A DNA stretch of 64,000 nucleotides from Enterobacteria phage CHB7. The translations under genes were made by a program, and so were the position numbers. The stretch lies in sequence record MK562504.1; one strand, written 5' to 3'. Under the pieces are notes generated by a model that was not told where the DNA came from, ran no database searches, and was given only the letters and a program-made list of their open reading frames with translations. This document shows positions 7,710 to 63,921 of the stretch, one piece after another. Each line of letters opens with the position of its first letter. Position 1 is the stretch's first letter.

Positions 7710-8069
7710 ATGAAACGTGAAAATGCAATCTTCAAAGGTAACTTTGCAATTGGCTTCTACGGAAAACCTACTGAAACTGAGAAGCAGTATGGTAAATACC
7801 TCCTTGATGACCTGATTGATTATGTCCAAGAAGGGCTAATTAAACACTCTGAGAAGAATCGTGTGAAAGGTTATATGGCTGTAGGTTCAGCAATCTCTAA
7901 CATTAAACTGGAGACGACATGTGCAAAAGAAGTTAGAGACCACTTTATCCGAGACCTTCACAGTAACCTTGATGGTGTTGATGTTATGTGTGCTTGGCTT
8001 GATGTTGATGGTGCTAAGTATACAACTTTCGTATTTAAAAATGAGGATATCAAATGTCTCTTCCCGTAA
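7710..8069 (+). CDS. hypothetical protein
   Basis: 119 aa ORF. Confidence 0.5.
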   Translation: MKRENAIFKGNFAIGFYGKPTETEKQYGKYLLDDLIDYVQEGLIKHSEKNRVKGYMAVGSAISNIKLETTCAKEVRDHFIRDLHSNLDGVDVMCAWLDVDGAKYTTFVFKNEDIKCLFP

Positions 8070-8554
8070 AAATTGACTTGTTCTTTGGATACAATCTGAT
8101 GACAGGGTGTATGCTTAGTCTTCCAAAGTCTCCTTATCGTACTGAGAAGGGTGCTGTGAAACGTGCTGCACACTACAATAATGACTTAGGTCGTTTGCAG
8201 ACGATTTACAAGTGGCTTGAAGAAGATGGTCGAGTAAATGAGTACTTCCATCAGCTTCGTATGGCTAACGAAGAAAATAAGATGGGCTATGAACTGTTCC
8301 CACGTCTTTACAAAGTGACTTCACCAACTTCTCAAACTTGGAATGAGAAATCTATTGAGGGTTACAAAAAGGTCACAATGTCTCCGTTTAGTAGTGGTGC
8401 AGAGTTTGAGAAGCTACGTGAGATAATTTATCAGACTGTTGCAAAGCGTGTTGCAAAGGGTCTTTCTTATAATGAAAAGATTGACTGGAACACTCAAAAA
8501 GTTATACAATTCTTTGCATACGATAATGACAAACAAACTTTTGTAGAGGTTTAA
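8054..8554 (+). CDS. hypothetical protein
   Basis: 166 aa ORF; ATG 8054 with GAGGA RBS. Confidence 0.5.
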   Translation: MSLPVKIDLFFGYNLMTGCMLSLPKSPYRTEKGAVKRAAHYNNDLGRLQTIYKWLEEDGRVNEYFHQLRMANEENKMGYELFPRLYKVTSPTSQTWNEKSIEGYKKVTMSPFSSGAEFEKLREIIYQTVAKRVAKGLSYNEKIDWNTQKVIQFFAYDNDKQTFVEV

Positions 8555-34936: not shown

Positions 34937-35012
34937 TTGGAGCGTCGAAAGGGAGTTGAACCCTCATAATCCTGTTTTGCAGACAGGTACATAGCCATTT
35001 CTGTCATCGACG
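34937..35012 (-). tRNA. tRNA-Cys (GCA)
   Basis: Hand-folded cloverleaf; loop CUGCAAA; encoded CCA; U73. Confidence 0.7.
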
Positions 35013-35019
35013 CATTAAA

Positions 35020-35113
35020 TTGGAGGAAGATACCAGACTTGAACTGGTACGCCGATTTCTCGGTTACTGACAGTTTAGCAAACTGTTCCCTTACCTTTTA
35101 GGGTTAATCTTCC
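35020..35113 (-). tRNA. tRNA-Ser (GCU), long variable arm
   Basis: Anticodon stem ACAGT/ACTGT, loop TTGCTAA; variable-arm hairpin CCGA-GAAA-TCGG. Confidence 0.7.
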
Positions 35114-35115
35114 AA

Positions 35116-35850
35116 TTATTTGTTCAAGGCATCCTTCATTTCTGGAGTTGCGATTGAATCAATCACACCAGTTTTACAAGCATCATCAAACCAGTCTGGT
35201 AAGACACCTGCAAGGAAACCATTAATATTAGTTTTCAAGTAATCAGCAATTAACGCTGCTTCATCTGCAATCATCTTAGTGACCTCATTAGCATATGCAG
35301 TAATCTTAGCAATGCCCTGATTAATCGCTGTAACGGCTTGTGAGGCTAAGGAAGAGATAGTGTCTAGTCCTTTATCAATTGCATCTTTTAAGTCGCTTAG
35401 AACGCCATTCACAGTGTCTATGGAGGTGTTAATCAAATCCATAGCTTGTTGACCGTACTCTGTAGCTACTCCCATGATTCCACTAAACGGTGTACAACCA
35501 ACTTGCTCTCCTGCTGCACCCATAACGTTAGAGTAACCTTTAGCTACCTGCATACGTGATGAGAACTCATCTACAGATTTCTGACCGTATTGAGTCAGTG
35601 TGTTAGTTGTCGTTGTAGTGCTTCCAAGGCTCGTTGAGAAGCTACTTAACAAGGCTGTAGTCAAACCAGCAGCAATAAGTTTATCTTTTACTGTAGGGTC
35701 TGATACCGAGCTAATAGAGCTTACTAATGAAGTAGAAGCGGCAATTGTGCCACCAAGGATTGCTGCACCAGTAATAAGAGGGTTAGAAAACCCGTTACCG
35801 GATTTCAGGAGATTAAAAATCTCTTTACCTTGTTCTGTCATCTCTTTCAT
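35116..35850 (-). CDS. hypothetical protein
   Basis: 244 aa Ser/Thr/Ala-rich protein inside the tRNA region. Confidence 0.5.
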   Translation of the reverse strand: MKEMTEQGKEIFNLLKSGNGFSNPLITGAAILGGTIAASTSLVSSISSVSDPTVKDKLIAAGLTTALLSSFSTSLGSTTTTTNTLTQYGQKSVDEFSSRMQVAKGYSNVMGAAGEQVGCTPFSGIMGVATEYGQQAMDLINTSIDTVNGVLSDLKDAIDKGLDTISSLASQAVTAINQGIAKITAYANEVTKMIADEAALIADYLKTNINGFLAGVLPDWFDDACKTGVIDSIATPEMKDALNK

Positions 35851-35867
35851 TAAGCACCTTTTGAAAT

Positions 35868-35944
35868 TGGCGGGTTAGTGGGATTTGAACCCTCTTCTCA
35901 TGTTTTTCAGACATGCGCTTTAACCATATAAGCTACTTAACCCA
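35868..35944 (-). tRNA. tRNA-Phe (GAA)
   Basis: Loop CUGAAAA; 3' end ambiguous by about 2 nt. Confidence 0.6.
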
Positions 35945-35951
35945 TTAAATT

Positions 35952-36028
35952 TGGGGTGACCTACGGGAATCGAACCCGTATAGACCATGTTCACAGCATG
36001 GGTCATTATCCATTTATGATAAGGCCAC
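35952..36028 (-). tRNA. tRNA-His (GUG)
   Basis: Loop CUGUGAA; C73; perfect T stem. Confidence 0.65.
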
Positions 36029-36059
36029 ATGTAAGGACTCTCGTAAGAACCCTTAGAAG

Positions 36060-36135
36060 TGGCAGCAGCGTAAGGATTTGAACCTTAATCTTTCAGCTTC
36101 AGAGGCTGGAGCATTGCCAGTTATGCTACACTGCT
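36060..36135 (-). tRNA. tRNA-Gln (CUG)
   Basis: Loop CUCUGAA; G73. Confidence 0.55.
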
Positions 36136-36142
36136 ATTAATT

Positions 36143-36221
36143 TGGTACTCCATATCGGATTCGAACCGATACATAACACAGATTTTAAGTCTGGCCTCTC
36201 TGCCAATTGGAGTAATGGAGC
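36143..36221 (-). tRNA. tRNA with Leu anticodon UAA, standard length (short variable region)
   Basis: Loop CUUAAAA; A73; about 79 nt, no long variable arm. Confidence 0.5.
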
Positions 36222-36223
36222 AT

Positions 36224-36299
36224 TGGCGGGGGATGTTGGAATTGAACCAACTTCTTCGATTTCAAAGACCGAGGTTTTAACCTTGTAAACTAATCCCCT
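36224..36299 (-). tRNA. tRNA-Gln (UUG)
   Basis: Stem TCGGT/ATCGA, loop CUUUGAA; G73. Confidence 0.6.
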
Positions 36300-36307
36300 T
36301 TAAATCT

Positions 36308-36865
36308 TTACTTTCTTAGTGGATGAATAAAGAATGCCAACATAATTCTTTCCCTTGAAAATGCTCTTTCTTCTGGGACAACACTTTTAAGTTTCCAACC
36401 AACATAAATTCTCCAGTAAAATTGTTTACCAAAGATTTTAATTGACGGGATAAAAGCGAATAAACCCCAAGCATTACTGTTCCACATCAGGAGATAACCT
36501 GTCTGATTATCTTCAGGGTTAGAACTTACGTTGATATTACCTTTCCACTTAGTAACATCTTTTACATCTCTTCCTAATACATGGTAAGAGAAGTTATAAG
36601 CTTTGTTTCTCCAGAGCCATCCAACTCTCTGCATATAAACACCGAGCTTACCAATCTTTCGAATCTTAGCCCATCGTTCAACGTGACCTTTGTCACCATC
36701 AATTGGGTTGTCATAAGTTTCCATCCATCTGAATCCAAAAGGTAAGTGACCTTTCTTCTCACTGTAGAATGGAACCACAAATGGTGCTAAGATTACTGCT
36801 AAGATTGCTGCAAATGGCTCTAGCAAAGCTAGGAAAATCCATGAAGCATACTTCAAATATCTCAT
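36308..36865 (-). CDS. membrane protein, hypothetical
   Basis: ATG 36863-36865 with AGAGG RBS; N-terminal hydrophobic segment; track ORF extends upstream from TTG into tRNA-Arg. Confidence 0.5.
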   Translation of the reverse strand: MRYLKYASWIFLALLEPFAAILAVILAPFVVPFYSEKKGHLPFGFRWMETYDNPIDGDKGHVERWAKIRKIGKLGVYMQRVGWLWRNKAYNFSYHVLGRDVKDVTKWKGNINVSSNPEDNQTGYLLMWNSNAWGLFAFIPSIKIFGKQFYWRIYVGWKLKSVVPEERAFSRERIMLAFFIHPLRK

Positions 36866-36885
36866 TTTAAATAGCCTCTTTAAAT

Positions 36886-36962
36886 TGGTGCAGAATAAGG
36901 GATTCGAACCCCTAACAAACAACTTCGTAGGTTGCTGCTCTATCCGTTTGAACTAATTCTGC
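36886..36962 (-). tRNA. tRNA-Arg (ACG)
   Basis: Loop CUACGAA; perfect 7 bp acceptor GCAGAAT/ATTCTGC. Confidence 0.65.
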
Positions 36963-37124
36963 AATGTTCTTTTGAGATTCCTGTCTAGCTCTCTTCTTAT
37001 CTCTTCTGAGAAAGCGTCTACGATGGTCTGTACGCCATTTGTAGTAATCTTCCTCACCAGCGTGAGAAGCACAGCAACCACAACTTGCAATTTCAACTTT
37101 ACCGTGTCTACCATAAGGCTTCAT
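36912..37124 (-). CDS. small basic Cys-containing ORF overlapping tRNA-Arg (doubtful)
   Basis: ATG with AGGAG RBS right after the preceding tRNA; last 51 nt overlap tRNA-Arg. Confidence 0.3.
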   Translation of the reverse strand: MKPYGRHGKVEIASCGCCASHAGEEDYYKWRTDHRRRFLRRDKKRARQESQKNIAELVQTDRAATYEVVC

Positions 37125-37140
37125 AGGAATCTCCTAAAAT

Positions 37141-37218
37141 TGGTGTTCCAAGACGGATTCGAACCGTCACTAATACAAGGTTTGAGCTTGCATCCTCTGC
37201 CAATTGGGATACTGGAAC
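37141..37218 (-). tRNA. tRNA with Leu anticodon CAA, standard length (short variable region)
   Basis: Stem GCAAG/CTTGT, loop CUCAAAC; A73; D-arm similar to the UAA tRNA. Confidence 0.5.
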
Positions 37219-37220
37219 AT

Positions 37221-37295
37221 TGGTACTCGCTGAAGGACTTGAACCTTCTTCACCAACTTGTAAGGATGGGGCTTTACCATATAAACTAAGCGAGT
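37221..37295 (-). tRNA. tRNA-Val (UAC)
   Basis: Loop CUUACAA; A73. Confidence 0.6.
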
Positions 37296-37391
37296 ATGAA
37301 AAGAGGTCTGAAGTTGTGCCGCTAACTCAACTCCGTGGAATTTGTTACGGTCTTCAGTTGACTCAAGCGGTCTTTCACTCGACCTCTGAAA

Positions 37392-37468
37392 TGGTGCTGC
37401 TCACAGGACTCGAACCTGCATTTCCATCCTTACAAGGGATGTGTAATAGCCAATTATACGAAAGCAGC
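37392..37468 (-). tRNA. tRNA-Thr (UGU)
   Basis: Stem CATCC/GGATG, loop CUUGUAA; A73. Confidence 0.65.
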
Positions 37469-37474
37469 ATTGTT

Positions 37475-37549
37475 TGGAGCATCCAGAGGGAATCGAACCC
37501 TCAACCTCAGTTTGGAAGACTGTAATTTTCCCGTTTAAACTATGGATGC
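37475..37549 (-). tRNA. tRNA-Gly (UCC)
   Basis: Loop CUUCCAA; U73; perfect T stem. Confidence 0.65.
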
Positions 37550-37555
37550 ACTAAT

Positions 37556-37631
37556 TGGTGGAGAAGCAGGGAATTGAACCCTGTACTTAAGTTTGCAAAA
37601 CTTATGTTTTAACCATGTAAACTACATCCCC
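37556..37631 (-). tRNA. tRNA-Ala (UGC)
   Basis: Stem TAAGT/ACTTA, loop UUUGCAA; G3-U70 wobble pair; A73. Confidence 0.7.
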
Positions 37632-37637
37632 AATGTT

Positions 37638-37713
37638 TGGTACAGGTGGAGGGAATTGAACCCATCGTCTTACTGATTAAGAGTCAGCCGCATAACCATT
37701 TTGCTACACCTGC
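37638..37713 (-). tRNA. tRNA-Lys (CUU)
   Basis: Loop CUCUUAA; A73. Confidence 0.55.
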
Positions 37714-37720
37714 ATTAATT

Positions 37721-37798
37721 TGGTAGGAGACAAGGGATTCGAACCCTCAAACACCAACTTCTAAGGATGGTAGGTTTACCAATTACCGTCAATCTCCC
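37721..37798 (-). tRNA. tRNA with Leu anticodon UAG, standard length (short variable region)
   Basis: Loop CUUAGAA; A73; about 78 nt. Confidence 0.45.
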
Positions 37799-37866
37799 AT
37801 TAAATCTTTGTAGAGAACTGCTAAGACGCCAAAGCAACAATGGTATCAAATGCCTTAACAATTCTC

Positions 37867-37887
37867 TAAAAAGACCTAACTGGTCTT
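37867..37887 (-). terminator. hairpin downstream of nuclease gene (weak terminator)
   Basis: AAAGACC-loop-GGTCTTT followed by U-rich tail on the minus strand. Confidence 0.35.
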
Positions 37888-38026
37888 TGCATAGTCTTGT
37901 TTAATCCGGTGACTAGAACCTTTGGAGAGCTTGATATTATCTCTTCTCCGTGACACCTACTAGGTGCTTTGTTGTGCGTGTACGACAATACACGAGGGAA
38001 ACCGAACGCTGTACCAGAGCGTGGGC

Positions 38027-38368
38027 TTAAATCTTTAAGCTAAGTTCAGTCTTGGACTTGACATCTTTAGCTTTGTAGATGACGACTTTATCAAGTGGTT
38101 CAATGTAAACAGCTAAGTAATCAACTTGAGAGTTATCAAAATTCATTATTCTATTTTCATTCTTGTTAGAACGAACTCTTTTCAGTTGCACTCTCCAAAG
38201 TTCACCTCTTTTGACTGATGTTGATTTTACCTCAACAGTCTCAATCAAACCATCTTTGTGAACTAGAAAGTCATACTTTGCATTATCTGTAGCTGGTGAA
38301 TACACTTCATAACCTCTTTTGAGGAAAGCTAATTGTGTAGCAATTTCACCTACTGAACCTTTCTTCAT
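38027..38368 (-). CDS. PD-(D/E)XK nuclease-like protein embedded in tRNA cluster
   Basis: ATG 38366-38368 with AAGGTGGTGA RBS; YDFLVHKDGLIETVEVKS resembles a D...ExK nuclease core. Confidence 0.5.
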   Translation of the reverse strand: MKKGSVGEIATQLAFLKRGYEVYSPATDNAKYDFLVHKDGLIETVEVKSTSVKRGELWRVQLKRVRSNKNENRIMNFDNSQVDYLAVYIEPLDKVVIYKAKDVKSKTELSLKI

Positions 38369-38390
38369 AATCACCACCTTAAAATTATTT

Positions 38391-38477
38391 TGGCAGAGAG
38401 TGCAGGAGTTGAACCCGTACCGTTTCCAGCAGCACCAGTTTTCAAGGCTGGTTGGTCTCCGTTGACCGCCACTCTCT
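38391..38477 (-). tRNA. tRNA-Ser (UGA), long variable arm
   Basis: Loop CUUGAAA; perfect acceptor AGAGAGT/ACTCTCT; G73; 87 nt. Confidence 0.65.
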
Positions 38478-38490
38478 CCGAAACAATCTT

Positions 38491-38573
38491 TGGCATGGGA
38501 CGGAGGAATCGAACCCCTTTGAGTAAGTTTTGGAGGCTTACGCACATGCCTTAGTGTCTTAACATCGTCCCAT
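38491..38573 (-). tRNA. tRNA-Trp (CCA), atypical 83 nt with enlarged D region
   Basis: Anticodon hairpin GTAAG-(C)CUCCAAA(A)-CTTAC; perfect acceptor; G73; extra nt between acceptor and D stem. Confidence 0.45.
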
Positions 38574-38715
38574 ATATTATTTCGAAGCTTACCGTATTAT
38601 CACAACACTGTAAAGCCCCTTCTCAGATTATTTACATGTTCTGGAAAACATGAGATACAGACCACCTCCCTACAGGAAGACCCGCTTAGGTCGTCTAAGT
38701 AATCTGCTAACTATT

Positions 38716-38743
38716 TGGTAGCCAAGGTAGGAGTCGAACCTAC
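38716..38743 (-). pseudogene. tRNA 3' fragment (CCA + acceptor + T arm only)
   Basis: TGG-T-AGCCAAG followed by T arm GTAGG-AGTCGAA-CCTAC; no matching 5' acceptor strand found within 100 nt. Confidence 0.4.
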
Positions 38744-38842
38744 TTACTCTCGAAGGTAGCTAACCTTCAGTAACTTTCCGACTTTCGTACATCTGTTAAC
38801 ATGTATTCAGATGGCTTACTAGTGTTGTCTTGACCATTAAAC

Positions 38843-38919
38843 TGGCACACCCTACAGGACTCGAACCTGTAACTCAGTGCTTAGAAGGCACTTGCTCTAT
38901 CCAATTGAACTAAGGGTGC
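38843..38919 (-). tRNA. tRNA-Arg (UCU)
   Basis: Loop CUUCUAA; G73. Confidence 0.65.
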
Positions 38920-39170
38920 ATTCTTATCTTTAAAGGCTCTCTTAGAAAACCCTTAAAGATGCCCACATTATTAATCATACCGTGGGCGAGTACGCCAAAT
39001 TCTTTGATGAGGGGTTGGAAGACCTCACTGGTGTTTAGCCTATTAAGCTACTGCCAGAAAAACATTATCGTTTGCATTTATTTTAGTTTGCAAAAATAGA
39101 CGCTACGCTAACGAAAACTAAGGTTACTATAAAGTGGTCACATCTGAATGTCAACAACTTTATCGAATTT

Positions 39171-39246
39171 GGTAGTGGTAGCAGGAATCGAACCTGCGAT
39201 GTTCGGTTATCAGCCGAGTGTTATGACCGTCTTAACTATACCACCA
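39171..39246 (-). tRNA. tRNA-Ile (GAU)
   Basis: Loop CUGAUAA; A73. Confidence 0.6.
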
Positions 39247-39248
39247 TT

Positions 39249-39325
39249 GGAGGTTCAGATGGGATTCGAACCCACATTCATAGGGCTTATGAAACCCTTG
39301 CATTACCTTATCTGCGACTGAACCA
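39249..39325 (-). tRNA. tRNA with CAU anticodon (Met or Ile2)
   Basis: Stem AGGGT/GCCCT, loop UUCAUAA; U73. Confidence 0.55.
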
Positions 39326-39403
39326 TAATAAGTTGCCCTTTGGAGAAGAACTATTGAGTGGGTGTTTCCAGCCGCGCAGGTGTTCTTCAGTTAAGGGCTA
39401 ATT

Positions 39404-39479
39404 TGGTAGGAGTGGAGGGATTCGAACCCTTCGCCTGTCAGATTAAAAGTCTGCCGCATCACCATTCTGCTACACTCCC
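39404..39479 (-). tRNA. tRNA-Lys (UUU)
   Basis: Loop CUUUUAA; A73. Confidence 0.6.
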
Positions 39480-39735
39480 ATTGAATCATCTTTGCAGTAA
39501 CCTACGCAAACCTTGCTAAAGGGTTTGTAGAGTCATTTCCTATTAAGCTAATCTAGAATCATGCTAAGGAAATTCATCGGCACTCATGGGACGACATTTA
39601 GCTCCATAAGTCACTGCAAAGAGGATTACCAGACCGTTGTTTATCTTAAGTGCTCCCATTACACCAACACGCCGTAACGTGTGAAGGAATCGAACCTTCG
39701 CCTTTTCTTTACCAGAGAAATAGATTGTTTTATAC

Positions 39736-39765
39736 TTGCTGTAAACGGTCTTCTGTAAATTTGTT
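39736..39765. repeat. inter-tRNA spacer repeat (TGCTGTAAACGGTCTTCTG family), copy 1
   Basis: Same about 20 nt word recurs at 40281-40306 and 40440-40466; CCAGACC word recurs near 39639, 39787, 40238, 40395. Confidence 0.6.
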
Positions 39766-39906
39766 GAGCCAGACCAAGTTTTAAATTTTTCAAAATTAAA
39801 TTGGCTTGAAATTTTTTAAGTTGGCTTGCTGAATTTGGTCTTCTGCTCCTTTAAAGAACACTCGTAAGAACTCTTTAAGGGAGGGGCTAAAAAGCCCTCT
39901 CAAATT

Positions 39907-39984
39907 TGGCGGTTACGAAGGGATTCGAACCCTCATCATCTCCCGTGACAGGGGAGTATTTTAACCAGATTAAACTACATAACC
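39907..39984 (-). tRNA. tRNA-Asp (GUC)
   Basis: Perfect stem CTCCC/GGGAG, loop CUGUCAC; G73. Confidence 0.7.
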
Positions 39985-39990
39985 TTTATT

Positions 39991-40078
39991 TGGTGCGCCG
40001 TGAAGGAGTCGAACCTACCGAGTCATAATGACAAGTGATTTACAGTCACCACCGCTTCCATCTACGGGATAACGACGC
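39991..40078 (-). tRNA. tRNA-Tyr (GUA), long variable arm
   Basis: Loop CUGUAAA; 88 nt; A73. Confidence 0.6.
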
Positions 40079-40148
40079 ATTTTATTCCATTCAGGCTAAG
40101 GACTTGCACCTTACAAATCGGTGAGCATTACGCTTCTCTCCCAAATCT

Positions 40149-40225
40149 TGGCGGTGAGTTAGGGATTCGAACCCTATGCCATTCGGTTAACAGCCGACCG
40201 CACATGCCTTATGTGCTTCCTCACC
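40149..40225 (-). tRNA. tRNA-Asn (GUU)
   Basis: Loop CUGUUAA; G73; perfect T stem. Confidence 0.65.
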
Positions 40226-40306
40226 ATGTTTAGTATTGCCAGACCGTATCTTTTCATTTTTCCTATAAAAATTTTTGAGATTGCTGTAAACGGTCTTCTG
40301 CAAATT

Positions 40307-40383
40307 TGGAGGCGGGTGCAGGAGTCGAACCTGCCGATACCATGCTAATGAGACATGTGAGACGCCCTTTCTCTATACCCGCG
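40307..40383 (-). tRNA. tRNA with CAU anticodon, unpaired 1-72 (C-C)
   Basis: Loop CUCAUUA; first acceptor pair is a C-C mismatch; U73. Confidence 0.5.
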
Positions 40384-40466
40384 AACTTTTATGACCAGAC
40401 CAAACTTTTAAGTTTTCTATGCGCGAAAAGTAAAGTTGTTTGCTGTACTTGGTCTTCTGTCAAATT

Positions 40467-40541
40467 TGGAGTCGTAGACGGGATTCGAACCCGCGAGCAA
40501 CTGATTGAAGGTCAGGTGGCTAACCATTTGCCTTCTACGAC
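40467..40541 (-). tRNA. tRNA-Glu (UUC), tentative
   Basis: Stem CTGA/TCAG, loop CCUUCAA (C at position 33 is unusual); perfect acceptor. Confidence 0.45.
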
Positions 40542-40548
40542 ATTAATT

Positions 40549-40625
40549 TGGTCTCCGTTGAAGGGATTGAACCTTCGACCTCACCGCCCCAAACGGCGCA
40601 CTCTACCAAACTGAGCTAAACGGAG
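40549..40625 (-). tRNA. tRNA-Pro (UGG)
   Basis: Loop UUUGGGG; C1-G72; A73; perfect acceptor. Confidence 0.7.
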
Positions 40626-51021: not shown

Positions 51022-51027
51022 AGCTAT

Positions 51028-51058
51028 ACAGCCCCTTTATTGGGGCTTTTTTATTTTC
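51028..51058 (+). terminator. rho-independent terminator
   Basis: AGCCCC-TTTATT-GGGGCT hairpin followed by TTTTTTATTTT. Confidence 0.7.
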
Positions 51059-51139
51059 TTATAAAATTTGGATTCACTCCGTTCATCTTGGGTCACCATA
51101 TCATGTGATAAAATATCTACCCTTCTTAGTAGCCTACTT

Positions 51140-51400
51140 AATCTTACTCTCTATATAGTTATATAGTACTATATAGTATCTTAGTCCCTTAGCAGTGAGT
51201 CTCTATAGCCCTCTGTATAACCCTTCTAAATAGCCCTCTATAAAGCCCTCTAATCAATCCTCTTCCAAACCTATACAATCACCTTAACCATCTCTTCATA
51301 GCCCCTTAGAAGCCCCTATACCCATCTTAATCTCTAGGTAAATGATAGTACCCTCTATAGGGTGTTCACTAGGTTCTACTAATCCTCTATATAGACTGTT
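51140..51400. repeat. cluster of short TATAG-containing repeats (CTCTATAG / CCCTCTATAA / TATATAGTA)
   Basis: Three tandem TATATAGTA units at 51150-51180; GAGTCTCTATAGCCC, CCCTCTATAAAGCCC, CCCTCTATAGGGTG, CCTCTATATAGACTG further on. Confidence 0.6.
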
Positions 51401-51699
51401 TTAGCTAACTAAACAGGTATCACCTTCTAAGGCTTATCCTACAAGGTCTAACACGGTACTAACAAGGTATCTTATAAGCCTGTATTTACCTGTTTTATAC
51501 AGAATACTATATAGATATTTATGCAATTCTTTAGTATTTCGTTTAGAAATATCTAAACTCATAAATTTTTATAAAATAGAACTGTCAAGTCACTTTTTAG
51601 GTGTTATGAAGGAACTCAAAAATATCTGTCTAGGATGTATATCTGCTTGGTAGCCCTTAACATCGCCCTTACAAGTCCTTTGCAAAATCTTAAAATATC

Positions 51700-52210
51700 A
51701 TTAACAATTTCTTAACAACTCTCTCAAGCTCTTAACATCTCTTCAGAGTTCTTAACAGATTCTTAACAGGACTAACAAGGGTGTAACAAGTTTCTAACAA
51801 GTGCTACATAGTCTTTACAGAATCTTAACAGATTGCTAACAAGTGCTAATTAGTTAATTTTAAAGGGTTATTTTGTTAAGATAATTAACAAGTTCCTAAC
51901 AAGTGTTTAACCTTTTTAACAAGCTGTTAACATGGTCACTATCTCTGGTCTTATCGTTCCCTTACCTTCTTAGTGATTCTCTAAACATCCTCTTAAAAGC
52001 TCTCTATAGCTCTATACAGCCTCTTTATAGCCCCTTGTAAGGTAACTATAGCCCAAGTAACTACAAAGGGTTTTATAGGGCTTTCTAGGGGCTTTAAAGG
52101 GTATGCCAAAGAGTCTAACAAGAGTTTAACAAGGTCTTAACAATGATTTAACATACCCCTAACAAGGGTAACTATGCAGGAGTTGTTAAGAATTTGTTAA
52201 GAAAATGTTA
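51700..52210. repeat. iteron-like array of more than 20 TAACA(A/G) words
   Basis: Direct copies at about 10-12 bp spacing over 51701-51924 (CTTAACA, CTAACAAG, GTAACAAG); second cluster 52105-52155; inverted copies (TTGTTAAG) 52173-52205. Confidence 0.7.
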
Positions 52211-52225
52211 AGGGGGCTAGCATAT

Positions 52226-52291
52226 ACGTAACTTTTAAGCCCCTTTTACGTAACTTCATAGCCCCTTTTACGTAACTTTTAAGCTACTTTT
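52226..52291. repeat. 3 x 22 bp tandem repeat (ACGTAACTTTTAAGCCCCTTTT family)
   Basis: Units 52226-52247, 52248-52269, 52270-52291 with 2-4 substitutions each. Confidence 0.7.
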
Positions 52292-52327
52292 AAGCCCCTA
52301 TAACATACTTTTTAGTGACTATCAATA

Positions 52328-52670
52328 GGATTCGATAGAGTCCTATCTTATAGGGGATTGTTTAGATATTCACAAGATACTAGCCAGCATATAAGCTTAT
52401 ACCCTTATAAGATTCTTTTAAGGCTCTAGGAAGCTCTATAAAGGGCTTTAAAGAGTGGGTTAATATGATTGGTTAAGTTGAGATGATAAGCCGTTATAGA
52501 GCGTTATAGAGCGTTTAAGGGATTGCCCTTCCCTTTCGGGTTATGGGCTTATATTTAAGGGATTGGTAACAATACCAATTAGTTGATTTGATAAGAGAAT
52601 ATAGAGTAAACTATAGAGTTATTGTTCTAAATGTCTGGAAAGGGATTGTATAAGGATTCGATAGAGTCCT
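52328..52670. repeat. dispersed 17 bp repeat GGATTCGATAGAGTCCT (2 copies)
   Basis: Copies at 52328-52344 and 52654-52670; near-palindromic core. Confidence 0.6.
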
Positions 52671-52684
52671 GTCTCATAGACGTT

Positions 52685-52707
52685 AAAAAGCCCCATTTAA
52701 GGGGCTG
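52685..52707 (-). terminator. rho-independent terminator ending the small-gene array
   Basis: Minus-sense AGCCCC-TTAAAT-GGGGCT followed by TTTTT. Confidence 0.6.
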
Positions 52708-52747
52708 TTAAGGTATCTGGGGCTATTTGCCCCGATGCGGCGTCTTA

Positions 52748-57474: not shown

Positions 57475-57764
57475 TATGATTTCCCCTTGTGAAATAATTT
57501 ACCAGTATGACTAATTTCAAAAGAGTCTATCATGTCTTTTGTAGACTTAACAGAACTTTTATTAGTGTTATCATAAATATCAACCTGAAGCAAAGGTTTT
57601 TTGTATTCTTTACAAAAGTTCCATACACAAATAACAACTTCTTTACCATTGATTTTTCCATGATACCATTCCGTAATATCATGAGTTCGGCGCATAGATT
57701 CTATGAAGTTGATATCTTGTAATAGTTTACTGAGTTTAGAACGTACATGAGCGGCAATAAACAT
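57474..57764 (-). CDS. array gene 13, hypothetical
   Basis: 96 aa; stop overlaps gene 12 start. Confidence 0.5.
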   Translation of the reverse strand: MFIAAHVRSKLSKLLQDINFIESMRRTHDITEWYHGKINGKEVVICVWNFCKEYKKPLLQVDIYDNTNKSSVKSTKDMIDSFEISHTGKLFHKGKS

Positions 57765-57805
57765 TTTAGAATCTCCAGTTTAGGAAAGCTCTTTATCTGG
57801 GGCTT

Positions 57806-57835
57806 ATGGTATCAAGCTTTTAAGCCCCTTGTAAA
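57806..57835 (-). promoter_or_regulatory. cassette type B promoter variant (TTTACA-18-TACCAT)
   Basis: Minus-sense TTTACA 57830-57835, TACCAT 57806-57811. Confidence 0.4.
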
Positions 57836-57840
57836 GTACT

Positions 57841-58002
57841 TTATGAAATAATTTTTATAACTTCTTTTAGTGTGATGTTTTCGCCATTTGTCAAGGCTAA
57901 ACATTTGTTACCAGTGCATGACAAGTAACTAAATGAGACTTTACCAGTTTTAGAAAATCCGTCAAGCCCTTTGTAAGTAATGATAGAGTTTTCTTTTATC
58001 AT
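57841..58002 (-). CDS. array gene 14, small hypothetical (53 aa)
   Basis: ATG 58000-58002; stop directly follows GTAAAGTACT word; below track cut-off. Confidence 0.35.
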   Translation of the reverse strand: MIKENSIITYKGLDGFSKTGKVSFSYLSCTGNKCLALTNGENITLKEVIKIIS

Positions 58003-58013
58003 TTGTCAAGCCC

Positions 58014-58220
58014 TTAAACATCATAATAATAAATTGCAGTATGTCTAATATGCTTTCTTGTGTGAATTGTCAAGTAACAATCTGATTTGATTGATGTATT
58101 TACATACGTATCATAATCTTTCTCTGATATACGTTGCCACACATCACAAATTAGCATATAAAAACGACGATGTTTTGTTTCAGTATTATCTACAATCATT
58201 AATTCACGTTGATATAACAT
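58014..58220 (-). CDS. array gene 15, hypothetical
   Basis: 68 aa; first gene after the array leader. Confidence 0.45.
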   Translation of the reverse strand: MLYQRELMIVDNTETKHRRFYMLICDVWQRISEKDYDTYVNTSIKSDCYLTIHTRKHIRHTAIYYYDV

Positions 58221-58418
58221 TTTTGAATCTCCAGTTTAGGAAGTGGGCTTGATTGCCCGTCTGATGCAAATACTAAATAACTTTGTTTTGCAGGTCAAGC
58301 AAATTTTTAAAAATATTTTCAGGAATTGCCAGAGAGGAACGGGCACACGACTACCACAAAACATAGCACAAATCAAGAATTATTTTTCAGTTCTCTACAG
58401 ATTTTTCTCTTGACTTTT

Positions 58419-58454
58419 GGGGAGAGGGGGAGTAAGAGGGGGAGAGGGGCAGGG
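58419..58454 (+). repeat. G-tract (GGGG-N3-GGGGG-N6-GGGGG-N3-GGGG-N2-GGG)
   Basis: Five G-runs within 36 nt in an otherwise AT-rich leader. Confidence 0.6.
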
Positions 58455-58471
58455 ATGGCTCTATCTACCTA

Positions 58472-58647
58472 CCTGCACAATTCTAAAATGATTTTTCTTG
58501 CCCGACACTCGCCGGGACTGCACGTTTTGAAAATGAAAAAACTCTTTGGAGTCCACCTGCACAAATTGAAAATGAATTTTCCCTTTGGAGTTCAAAATTT
58601 TCTCTACAGATTTCTGTCCAGACTTTTACCTGCACAATTCTAAAATA
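58472..58647. repeat. 3 dispersed direct repeats CCTGCACAATTCTAAAAT(G/A)
   Basis: Copies at 58472-58490, 58556-58574, 58629-58647; contain the reverse complement of the cassette word CATTTTAGAAT. Confidence 0.6.
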
Positions 58648-58690
58648 AAAAAGCCCTCCTTACCTGAAAAACTTACCAGATAAGAAAGGC
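58641..58690 (-). terminator. rho-independent terminator (10 bp stem, 18 nt loop)
   Basis: Minus-sense GCCTTTCTTA / TAAGGAGGGC stem followed by TTTTTTATTTT. Confidence 0.55.
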
Positions 58691-58721: not shown

Positions 58722-59504
58722 TTAGTTCTTTGCAGCTAAGAACTTGATATTAGCAATGCCTACAATTGCTTCAGCATCTTTCTCATTTGCTGCAAGAATG
58801 TACACATCAGGTTCACTTCCAAATGTCACTGCACGTTGCATACTACCTTTCAACGGCGGGGTAACTTGAGCGTTACTTAGAGACATTCTCTCAACCGGAG
58901 GGTTACTCCGATGTACCTTGTTCTTACGATGCCTGAAGAGGGTAACTCCATCTTCGTTGACAACGGCTACACCTGCAAAGTATTGTGGCTCACTGTGATT
59001 ACCCCATGTTGACAGAGTATTAAACATTGCCTCTTCAAACACGTAAAGGTAAACATCAACATCTTTCAGGATGTGATTCATAATCACCACAACAGCTTTC
59101 GGGTCAAGTCCACCAATCCCTGCACCAATCATTGGAAGACCAACTTTCTTCAGTTGATTTACTTTGCAGTACTGGTTAAGACTCAACAAAGCACTCTCAA
59201 GAGCATCGTAACGGGCATCTTTACCAGTCTTCAACTGAGTATACAGGTTAGCAATACGTCCTTGTTTAAGACGTGCTACAGAGAGTTTACCAAGCAGTTT
59301 CTGGCAAGGTTTATGCTCTCTTCCTCCTGCTACACGGTAGACTTCAGCATCGGTTTCATAGGCTTTTGGGTAGCCTTTAGAAATCTTATCAGCAATACCT
59401 GCACCCATCAGGTTCATGCAGTTACAACCGTGACCGATGATATCAAACTTACCTTTTTCAAAGTCTGCGAAGATATCACCTTTGATGACTTTTACAATAC
59501 CCAT
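58722..59504 (-). CDS. macro-domain protein (TARG1/DarG-like ADP-ribosyl hydrolase fold) with C-terminal unknown domain
   Basis: N-terminal KGDIFADF...DIIGHGCNCMNLMGAGIA and later GLPMIGAGIGGLDP match macro-domain signatures; 260 aa. Confidence 0.65.
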   Translation of the reverse strand: MGIVKVIKGDIFADFEKGKFDIIGHGCNCMNLMGAGIADKISKGYPKAYETDAEVYRVAGGREHKPCQKLLGKLSVARLKQGRIANLYTQLKTGKDARYDALESALLSLNQYCKVNQLKKVGLPMIGAGIGGLDPKAVVVIMNHILKDVDVYLYVFEEAMFNTLSTWGNHSEPQYFAGVAVVNEDGVTLFRHRKNKVHRSNPPVERMSLSNAQVTPPLKGSMQRAVTFGSEPDVYILAANEKDAEAIVGIANIKFLAAKN

Positions 59505-62811: not shown

Positions 62812-63921
62812 TTAGATTTCACGTTTACGTTGAGAAATCAGTTCACCAGCAGTGCCTACAACAACATGCAGTGCTTCAGATTTGCCATCCCACTCTTTGA
62901 CAACCTGACGCTGACCATTCACGATTGCTGCAACTTCATAACGAGAAGCTCGCATTTTCATATCTTGATAGTCAGTTGGTACAGATACAACGTCTCGTGG
63001 ATGTACACGAACTTTCAGGATAGTATCACCAGAGAAGCTACGTACATAATCCCAAGCACCAACATGCAGACCTTGAGAGCAAGTTACTGTACGGTCATTA
63101 TCAACCATCCAGCGTGGCATCTCTACAACGTTACCCAAATCATTAGGAACTTTGCAGGTACGGGAGTCAAACAGCTTACCACCACGAGTTGTAACTTTCT
63201 TCCAACCGATGATATAACCTTCTTCATCAATCTCAACGTCAAGGTGAGATACAAAGCCCCAAAGTTGTTCTACAGAATCTTTGGATGGGTTTTCCATCAG
63301 TTTTTCGAAGAATGCAACCAGACGTTTAAAGCCATCATCACCAACTTTCATCATATCCAGAATACGGTCTACCAGAGTGGAACGCATTTGAACAGCACCG
63401 TAGTACAGGTTATCGCCTTTGATGGTGATTGCACCCTGAGTGAAGTTCTCGATAGACTTACGAATGTTCATCAGTTCGAAAGCTTTCTTGTACTCACCAC
63501 CTACAACAGCCATCACGATTTCTTTGTAGTTTGGATGGGTAGACTCAACGATTTCAGAATCTGCACCGAAAGTCATGATAACAGAATCACCAGTAATCAT
63601 GTACTCAATCTGGTTACCGTTCTGCATTGCTTCGTGCAGTTGGTTAACAGGTTCTTTCTTCACTGCCTCTTTAACAGCCTTGGCAACTGGCTTAGTAGCC
63701 GTTTTCTTAGCAGACTTTGCAATCTGTTTCAGAGTCTGTTTAGCTGGCTTGGAAGTTGCTTTCTTAGCACCTTTCAGGGTTGCTTCGTGACGTTCTACAG
63801 CACGACCAACGGAACGAGTAGAAGTATTATACTTCATTGCAATGGCAGTTTTGGTCAGTTTACCTTCCTGAACCAGTGCATAGATTTCTGCGTCGATTTG
63901 TGCTTTAGTTTTAGTAGTCAT
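62812..63921 (-). CDS. hypothetical protein with N-terminal HTH-like segment and Lys/Ala-rich linker
   Basis: 369 aa; MKYNTSTRSVGRAVERH then KKATSKPAKQ... basic linker. Confidence 0.5.
   Translation of the reverse strand: MTTKTKAQIDAEIYALVQEGKLTKTAIAMKYNTSTRSVGRAVERHEATLKGAKKATSKPAKQTLKQIAKSAKKTATKPVAKAVKEAVKKEPVNQLHEAMQNGNQIEYMITGDSVIMTFGADSEIVESTHPNYKEIVMAVVGGEYKKAFELMNIRKSIENFTQGAITIKGDNLYYGAVQMRSTLVDRILDMMKVGDDGFKRLVAFFEKLMENPSKDSVEQLWGFVSHLDVEIDEEGYIIGWKKVTTRGGKLFDSRTCKVPNDLGNVVEMPRWMVDNDRTVTCSQGLHVGAWDYVRSFSGDTILKVRVHPRDVVSVPTDYQDMKMRASRYEVAAIVNGQRQVVKEWDGKSEALHVVVGTAGELISQRKREI

Follow-up and report, generated by a model that had tools for sequence, protein, structure and literature searches.

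A conserved array of four direct repeats at the early-gene boundary of Felix-O1-like phages: candidate protein-binding sites and a possible origin-type element

The DNA analysed here, a stretch of 64,000 nucleotides that we refer to as ‘the window’, comes from Enterobacteria phage CHB7 (sequence record MK562504.1), a Suspvirus, and so a Felix-O1-like myovirus of the Ounavirinae. Between a ‘phosphatase’ gene with its terminator and the terminal array of small early genes, which starts at 58220, lies a 500-bp gap. It contains a noncoding island of ~280 bp (58371-58650), present in single copy and more constrained than its neighbours, chiefly in four repeated boxes and in an adjoining block of 48 bp, ‘block B’. 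We lean towards regarding the boxes as protein-binding sites that act at the level of DNA. More tentatively, we propose that the island is a cis-acting array of such sites, most likely an element of the origin-of-replication type. An earlier note on this DNA had treated the gap as a leader with a G-quadruplex-like tract and three direct repeats; ‘leader’ describes only part of what is a composite intergenic region. Felix O1 and relatives are known as classic typing phages and serve today in biocontrol and therapy. Within the 44.7-kb part of the genome that was examined, no noncoding sequence is better conserved than the island, which lies at the boundary of their early block and presents a small, defined target: four boxes and one dimorphic spacer.

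The boxes are bipartite direct repeats of 24-27 bp, CCTGCAC-N6-AAAATGA-W4-5, and all four copies have the same orientation. Three repeats of 19 bp, about 80 bp apart, had been reported in the earlier note. What is exact is an 18-nt sequence that occurs twice (58472-58489 and 58629-58646), with a 14/18 variant between (58556-58573), and the box copies number four; since the start-to-start spacings of repeat and variant are 84 and 73, ‘about 80 bp’ was a fair description. The duplicated words that the note had seen are there: TTCTCTACAGATTT occurs exactly at 58391 and 58600. The core TGCAC-N3-T-N2-AAAATRA is found four times in the island and nowhere else in the 64 kb, against a chance expectation of 0.47, and a count of four was reached in none of 100 shuffles. 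Sixty-six distinct units give the consensus aCCTGCAC-N6-AAAATGA-W4-5-kC, in which the invariance of the two halves is partly fixed by the rule used to select units, although the halves are also invariant in unbiased alignments. These halves lie about one helical turn apart. A/T tracts in the island are phased at ~11 bp (power 0.52, against a background of 0.07, standard deviation 0.09), which fits bent or wrapped DNA. On architecture, a CRISPR-like array or a set of solitary repeats was rejected, because conserved linkers of 0-35 nt, identical between phages, join those units that do not abut. A dispersed promoter or regulatory motif was rejected because the box is found only at this locus. 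No sigma-70 promoter inside the boxes passes the scan in the coliphages, and, compared by hand, the boxes matched none of the sigma-54, sigma-E, sigma-32, T4 late and MotA motifs.

Conservation of the island exceeds that of its surroundings. A 361-bp query (58300-58660) matched 290 phage records. This core is 84-86% identical to the felixounaviruses, against 76-78% for the surrounding 1.9 kb and ~70% for the adjacent phosphatase, measured as protein. Among the enterobacterial relatives compared (Felixounavirus and Mooglevirus), units 2-4 together with block B are 78-93% identical (block B by itself 87-93%), and the linkers are 25-81% identical to those of relatives. Block A, a 45-bp segment between the array promoter and block B (58326-58370), is poorly conserved (42-66%); the first array gene is non-homologous in felixounaviruses, where the island stays. 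Gene content is mosaic on either side. The number, order and orientation of the units are constant in four genera, and the last unit always abuts the terminator. Box spacing is 45/39/73 in Suspvirus and Felixounavirus, 45/41/75 in Mooglevirus and 39/37/37 in the Erwinia phages of Kolesnikvirus. Pattern scans of IMG/VR found multi-copy box arrays only in contigs of Ounavirinae size, at one locus per genome; outside the Ounavirinae these scans returned only single chance matches or coding repeats. A host origin was rejected, the island having no match in 5,426 Escherichia coli genomes. One IMG/VR contig (L187, 3300045988_024527, 93.8 kb) carries, at ~7770-8490, a Felix-like variant with three boxes only, in which unit 3 and its linker are replaced by sequence with an ATCTGT...ACAGAT inverted repeat, and in which the terminator and the downstream gene also differ.

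The constraint has the mark of neither RNA structure nor coding. A structured noncoding RNA was rejected for want of an Rfam match in the island (none even at E<=10), of excess folding stability (z = -0.8, 0.03 and 0.32, from both strands, in this phage and in Erwinia phage M7) and of a covariation signal: in an alignment of 12 diverse sequences the covariation term was ~-1.4 kcal/mol on both strands, with 1-2 compensatory pairs. The sole robust helix in alignment folding was the terminator. Coding was considered for the plus-strand open reading frame (ORF) at 58455-58643, which could be read as a small protein gene (62 aa) with the G-rich tract before it as a strong Shine-Dalgarno sequence. 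An ATG does follow GGAG-rich sequence, and no stop interrupts the frame across units 1-3, which are spaced 45 and 39 apart, both multiples of 3. Of 15 colinear relatives, 14 keep the frame open, and a coding sequence is annotated there in two records, Michonne and Sf13. Such a gene is nonetheless hardly credible, and we rejected the ORF as a conserved one because neither start nor frame is kept and there is no significant third-position bias. SUSP2 and Felix O1 have CTG as the start codon; in wV8, Mooglevirus and Erwinia phages the frame is shifted by indels of 2 nt and 4 nt; one relative has an in-frame stop; and the variable sites, by codon position, are 16, 23 and 27 of 59. Other records have a minus-strand ORF or none. 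The array is open in two plus-strand frames because the boxes contain no stop codons there. Annotation of the equivalents of 58455-58643 (KT001916, MF158040, NC_012749) is in conflict, the ORF over the boxes being on the plus strand in Michonne and Sf13 and on the minus strand in wV8; the Felix O1 RefSeq record has no ORF over the box array. The minus-strand ORF, of the wV8 gp13 type, was not analysed in detail, and the same 2-nt and 4-nt indels argue against it. A practical point for annotators is that conflicting, spurious ORFs stand on the island in public records. Since the constraint lies in the boxes and block B and comes without an RNA-structure or coding signature, we infer that these sequences act as duplex DNA.

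Table 1. Features of the 500-bp gap and its borders (positions in the window; bp, base pairs; RBS, ribosome-binding site; UTR, untranslated region)
Feature	Coordinates	Strand	Remarks
5' UTR with RBS cassette (CTAAACTGGAGATTCAAAAATG)	58221-58269	-	cassette shared with the next array gene
Sigma-70 promoter of the first small early gene, TTGACC-17-TAGTAT	58298-58270	-	only match in the gap aimed at the array
UP-like A/T block	58299-58320	-	just upstream of -35; TTTTTAAAAA invariant in six genomes, four genera
Conserved block B (TCAAGAATTATTTTTCAGTTCTCTACAGATTTTTCTCTTGACTTTT)	58371-58418		48 bp; ends in plus-strand TTGACT; first TTCTCTACAGATTT word
Homopurine G-tract (GGGGAGAGGGGGAGTAAGAGGGGGAGAGGGGCAGGG)	58419-58454	+	canonical G-quadruplex motif and H-DNA motif; one of two alleles
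Box unit 1 (ACCTGCACAATTCTAAAATGATTTTTC)	58471-58497		27/27 identical, Suspvirus versus felixounaviruses
Box unit 2 (ACTGCACGTTTTGAAAATGAAAAAACTCTTTGGAG)	58517-58555		copy overlooked in the earlier note
Box unit 3 (CCTGCACAAATTGAAAATGAATTTTCCCTTTGGAG)	58556-58594		81-92% identity across enterobacterial genera
Linker, units 3 to 4	58595-58627		holds second copy of TTCTCTACAGATTTCTGTCCAGACTTTT; repeat family D3, exact word match
Box unit 4 (ACCTGCACAATTCTAAAATAAAAAAG)	58628-58650		A-run complementary to terminator T-tail; in all four genera
Intrinsic terminator of the upstream operon (rIIA ... macro-domain phosphatase)	58692-58651	-	17-bp stem, 8-nt loop, T-run
Macro-domain ‘phosphatase’ gene	58722-59504	-	just upstream of terminator

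Between block B and unit 1 lies the G-rich tract, which the earlier note had placed exactly and called exceptional. No other 40-mer of the window is as rich in G (27, against a mean of 7.9, standard deviation 2.6). The prediction that the note had suggested as a check was run with a canonical G-quadruplex (G4) definition of at least four runs of at least three G with loops of 1-7 nt, and with a G4Hunter threshold of >1.5. The canonical motif has a match at 58419-58449 with others overlapping it, and one further, weaker match in the 64 kb, and the G4Hunter score of 2.36 at 58419 is the maximum of the window; the tract is its sole strong canonical G4 motif. The loops are 2-7 nt long. A perfect homopurine mirror repeat (14 + 3 + 14), with 14-nt arms around TAA, takes up the first 31 nt of the tract, GGGGAGAGGGGGAG-TAA-GAGGGGGAGAGGGG; by the definition used (homopurine mirror repeat, arms of at least 10 nt, short spacer) this is the classical H-DNA motif, and the earlier note had not mentioned it. 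In Felix O1, wV8 and Mooglevirus the mirror is imperfect. Other quadruplex-like G-run motifs (GGGN7-12 repeats) are found only at 52068-52101 (plus strand) and 51209-51248 (minus strand), in or beside the terminal-repeat homologue described below, and G4Hunter also exceeds 1.5 at about 51250-51300.

The tract is, however, only one of two alleles. In 5 of 23 IMG/VR loci the ~50 nt between TTGACTTTT and unit 1 read ATTTCCAGATGTGGTAGCCTTGTGAGAAATGGCGAC... instead, and this non-G allele is present, at 91-100% identity, in 140 phage records, from Escherichia and Salmonella phages alike. The enterobacterial relatives with the island number ~262 (290 records less 28 from Erwinia), so that about half of the close relatives have non-G sequence where the G-tract would be. 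Were a quadruplex required, the motif should be retained in relatives, and it is not; the emphasis that the earlier note had laid on it as a functional requirement is therefore misplaced. Erwinia phage M7 has a shorter G-run, GGGAGGGTGGG, and from this, together with the non-G allele elsewhere, the G-rich state is probably old; it is nevertheless clearly dispensable. Compared across relatives, the tract is a replaceable spacer, accessory rather than the active principle.

It does recur as a place where assemblies break. Public assemblies that start or stop in or beside the G-tract are that of Andreotti (MN850610, at position 1) and IMG/VR contigs L017, L018 and L031; L018 ends in Nextera adaptor sequence, and a further contig, L030, is a chimera, fused to unrelated GC-rich sequence inside unit 1. 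Because records and contigs begin or end in the gap (Andreotti, KhF1, FSL SP-010 and four IMG/VR contigs), a genome terminus or pac site was suspected there. The breaks cluster at the G-tract, one ends in adaptor and one is chimeric, so they look like assembly artefacts; they are indirect evidence of trouble that the tract causes for polymerases or library preparation, and would be compatible with coverage problems, but they give no evidence of a genome end. For users of these records, this means that a start at the G-tract is not a true end of the genome. The terminus was rejected on the ground that the terminal repeat annotated in phage Pr103Blw maps at a distance of 6 kb from the gap. Direct terminal repeats are short in Felix-O1-like phages (PMC4837284, PMC8303462): 608 bp in UAB_Phi87, established by Bal31 digestion and run-off sequencing (PMC4837284), and 581 bp in Pr103Blw, obtained via PhageTerm (PMC8303462). 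The 581-bp repeat maps to 51649-52217 of the window with 81% identity. This lies in a noncoding gap, 51022-52747, at a convergent junction where plus-strand genes end (51021) and minus-strand genes start (52748), and probably represents the physical end and packaging region of the genome. The Pr103Blw repeat is rich in short repeats of the CTTGTTAA/TGTTAAGA type.

Promoter-like elements on the plus strand are aimed at the boxes. The TTGACT that ends block B (58411-58416) is kept in both alleles, with a TA exactly 17 nt downstream. In the non-G allele the result is TTGACT-17-TGgTAGCCT, which scores 11.6 on a position weight matrix (PWM), as high as the early promoter. In G-allele genomes the -10 is TAAGAG and the score of 6.5 falls below the shuffle median of 9.3. 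Erwinia phage M7 (contig L008, 1228-1320) has a divergent strong pair, TTGACT-17-TATATT toward the small genes and TTGACG-18-TATACT, with a PWM score of 12.5, toward the boxes; the coliphage G-allele genomes have no such second promoter. On our reading of the sequence, if 58419-58470 were deleted (the G-tract plus a 16-nt spacer ending in duplicated ACCT), TTGACT would stand at a spacing of 16 nt from the TAAAAT of unit 1, giving a promoter near consensus on the plus strand. Exactly this uninterrupted arrangement is shared by the second TTCTCTACAGATTT word and unit 4, with a weak -35 (CAGACT).

Among the roles known in lytic phages, an origin-type one best fits the combination of direct repeats, adjacent bent A/T-rich DNA and a promoter or structure-prone tract. 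Iteron-type origins (e.g. lambda ori, T4 oriE, P1 oriR and those of iteron plasmids) likewise consist of several same-orientation direct repeats in a noncoding stretch, with A/T-rich bent DNA beside them, a possible activating promoter nearby and conservation above that of the surroundings. They have three or more such repeats, and the island has four boxes in the genomes examined and three in the one variant contig. One sequence-specific protein, of phage or host, would bind the four iteron-like boxes in duplex DNA, and the adjacent AT-rich DNA would then be opened, perhaps with the aid of plus-strand transcription or of strand separation at the G-tract. The plus-strand promoter-like elements in the non-G allele and in Erwinia phages fit with transcriptional activation of an origin. 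In a novel and much less likely variant, the origin would be primed from a G-loop or R-loop, with the homopurine tract and the promoter-bearing allele as interchangeable means of opening the DNA.

Several observations weigh against an origin. No initiator gene is adjacent (the neighbours are the macro-domain phosphatase and small proteins without assigned function), and the genes for replication are found elsewhere in the genome. At 24-27 bp the boxes exceed iterons in length, and their spacing, 37-45 and 73 bp, lacks the regular 11- or 22-bp phasing of the classical kind. DnaA boxes are missing: DnaA-like words occur only at two mismatches, at background rate. One site resembles that of integration host factor where about one is expected in the island, Chi sites, too, are absent or not enriched there, and GC skew has no feature at the site. 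With a GC content of 36-40%, the island is not below the neighbouring array and has no obvious unwinding element. A convincing plus-strand promoter is missing from G-allele genomes (best PWM score 6.5), and we found no experimental origin mapping for any Ounavirinae phage in the literature searched. The DNA-level reading itself rests mostly on the exclusion of RNA and protein explanations.

Other functions can be envisaged for the same anatomy. In line with the regulator-binding module that the earlier note had thought possible, the boxes might be operator or enhancer sites through which a regulator turns on or turns off the early promoter at 58298-58270 or the whole early array, either through DNA looping or as the nucleus for a protein that spreads or silences. 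This is possible, though we hold it less plausible than not by a good measure. The boxes do lie upstream of a conserved strong promoter with an UP-like element, their phased A/T tracts recall curved upstream activating DNA, the island sits at the border of the rIIA-to-phosphatase operon and the early array, and in Felix O1 several array ORFs peak 5 min after infection (PMC3185647). Yet 210-380 bp separate the boxes from the promoter and transcription start, the intervening block A is the weakly conserved part, the remaining array genes have promoter cassettes of their own without boxes, and felixounaviruses replace the first array gene and keep the island. An unlikely option is that the island’s product is a plus-strand noncoding RNA, running from near TTGACT through the boxes to the terminator hairpin and serving either as a protein sponge, by way of single-stranded GGAG and A-rich motifs, or as an antisense or convergent-transcription insulator against the upstream operon. 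Its TTGACT is followed in both alleles by TA at -12/-11, 17 nt on, which makes a good promoter in the non-G allele and a strong one in Erwinia M7; all boxes have one orientation; and Felix O1 ‘ORF14’, in the gap, gave a product in reverse transcription PCR, strand not stated (PMC3185647). Against such an RNA, the G-allele -10 lacks the key final T, no plus-strand T-run follows the hairpin in this phage, the folding (z = -0.8) and covariation signals are missing, and conservation follows the box cores and not any pattern of pairing.

That the boxes have no present function is very unlikely. They would then be decayed tandem duplicates of the terminator T-tail region, homogenised by frequent recombination in co-infections, and indeed unit 4 runs on from the tail of the terminator, a weak hairpin and then a T-run can be read on the minus strand in each of units 1-3, and gene content is mosaic on both flanks. 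Four genera, however, including the Erwinia phages, keep unit number, order and core while linkers and neighbouring genes diverge, and neutral DNA is not expected to hold the 81-100% identity of the boxes and block B between genera at that depth. Very improbable, too, is a scheme in which Felix-O1-like myoviruses deliver or activate their genome in two stages and the boxes, with their structure-prone spacer, arrest transfer or load a factor; the arrest would last until the small early gene products act. We give still less credence to its specific form, a DNA-entry checkpoint like that of phage T5, with the island as the inner edge of a first-entering ~6.5-kb segment of small early genes at which transfer, or a downstream step, pauses. 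The positional likeness is close. With the terminal-repeat homologue at 51649-52217, the island would lie 6.1-6.7 kb from the physical end, ~7% of roughly 88 kb, where the T5 injection stop signal (untranslated Repeat Region 3, in the left terminal repeat) lies at 7.9% (10.1101/866236). Both are conserved untranslated repeats some 7-8% from an end, both bound a terminal block of small early genes (here with sigma-70 promoters of their own) and both are better conserved than the adjoining ORFs. The T5 region, however, is ~1.2 kb long, lies inside a 10-kb terminal repeat and contains inverted repeats, palindromes and paired DnaA boxes; the island is 280 bp of direct repeats outside a terminal repeat of ~0.6 kb, and neither paired DnaA boxes nor large inverted repeats were found at it. 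Two-step entry is not known for Felix-O1-like phages, and the likeness in position may be coincidence.

Returning to the array of DNA sites, the literature searched (on Felixounavirus termini, transcription and origins) described neither the four boxes nor the G/non-G dimorphism. Annotation in the wV8 and KhF records is confined to the terminator and the repeat of the promoter region, the Felix O1 paper names the terminator and further repeats and not the boxes (PMC3185647), and a Bas63 knockout study held no usable intergenic data. Cis-acting arrays of repeats between phage genes are a familiar kind of element; this anatomy is undescribed.

The wider setting is a one-directional region. The 1.9 kb around the gap are 95-97% identical to phages mistaenkt, EcSzw-2, SUSP2 and EP1, and the window as a whole has a GC content of 39.9%. 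Genes from 52.7 to 64 kb are on the minus strand, so the region is read right to left: rIIB (62812-63921), a polynucleotide-kinase-like gene, an SLT-domain gene, the spanin-region genes and the macro-domain ‘phosphatase’. The gap that follows is the second-largest noncoding gap in the stretch of the SUSP2 genome examined (44000-88698), and the island within it marks off the early array from the long rIIA-to-phosphatase operon. In minus-strand order, the gap comprises the terminator, the noncoding island and then the UP-like element, sigma-70 promoter and RBS cassette. The earlier note was right that a strong terminator precedes the leader, and right in the order terminator, leader, array once this is read on the minus strand. 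The terminator is 95-97% identical to its equivalents in felixounaviruses, and its Felix O1 counterpart is t13 (PMC3185647).

The note had also expected the leader to hold the promoter of the array. It does, in the gap, at some distance from the features that the note had stressed: the promoter is 120-350 bp from the G-tract and repeats. Its sequence has the spacing of a conserved sigma-70 promoter (16-18 nt) upstream of a gene. It has the top minus-strand PWM score in seven genomes of four genera, and the bases of its -35 and -10 elements show no variation between the coliphages and Erwinia phage M7. Because these elements lie, conserved, at 58298-58270, the predicted array promoter is taken to be real and separate from G-tract and boxes; the A/T block TTTTTAAAAA beside it is a putative UP-like element. 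The RBS cassette belongs to a 27-nt repeat (D4), with copies at 58216-58242 and 57760-57786 that are 96% identical, and of the array’s many promoter cassettes only the first has boxes. There is a likeness here to the hyperplastic early-region cassettes of other phages (the T4-type promoter/stem-loop cassettes, PeSL, and the 57-bp repeats of Felix O1) in the 58221-58298 part, which is repeated before the next gene; the boxes, block B and the G-tract, in contrast, lie outside the cassettes and occur once per genome. The array cassettes at 57760-57842 and 58216-58242 resemble both the hyperplastic promoter/stem-loop kind and the reported Felix O1 repeats, and a 22-nt inverted repeat (57785-57806 / 57821-57842) overlaps a promoter-like site in the array. 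No tRNA genes were found in the gap; 24 of them are clustered at 34938-40625 on the minus strand, including two for tRNA-Met and two for tRNA-Gln.

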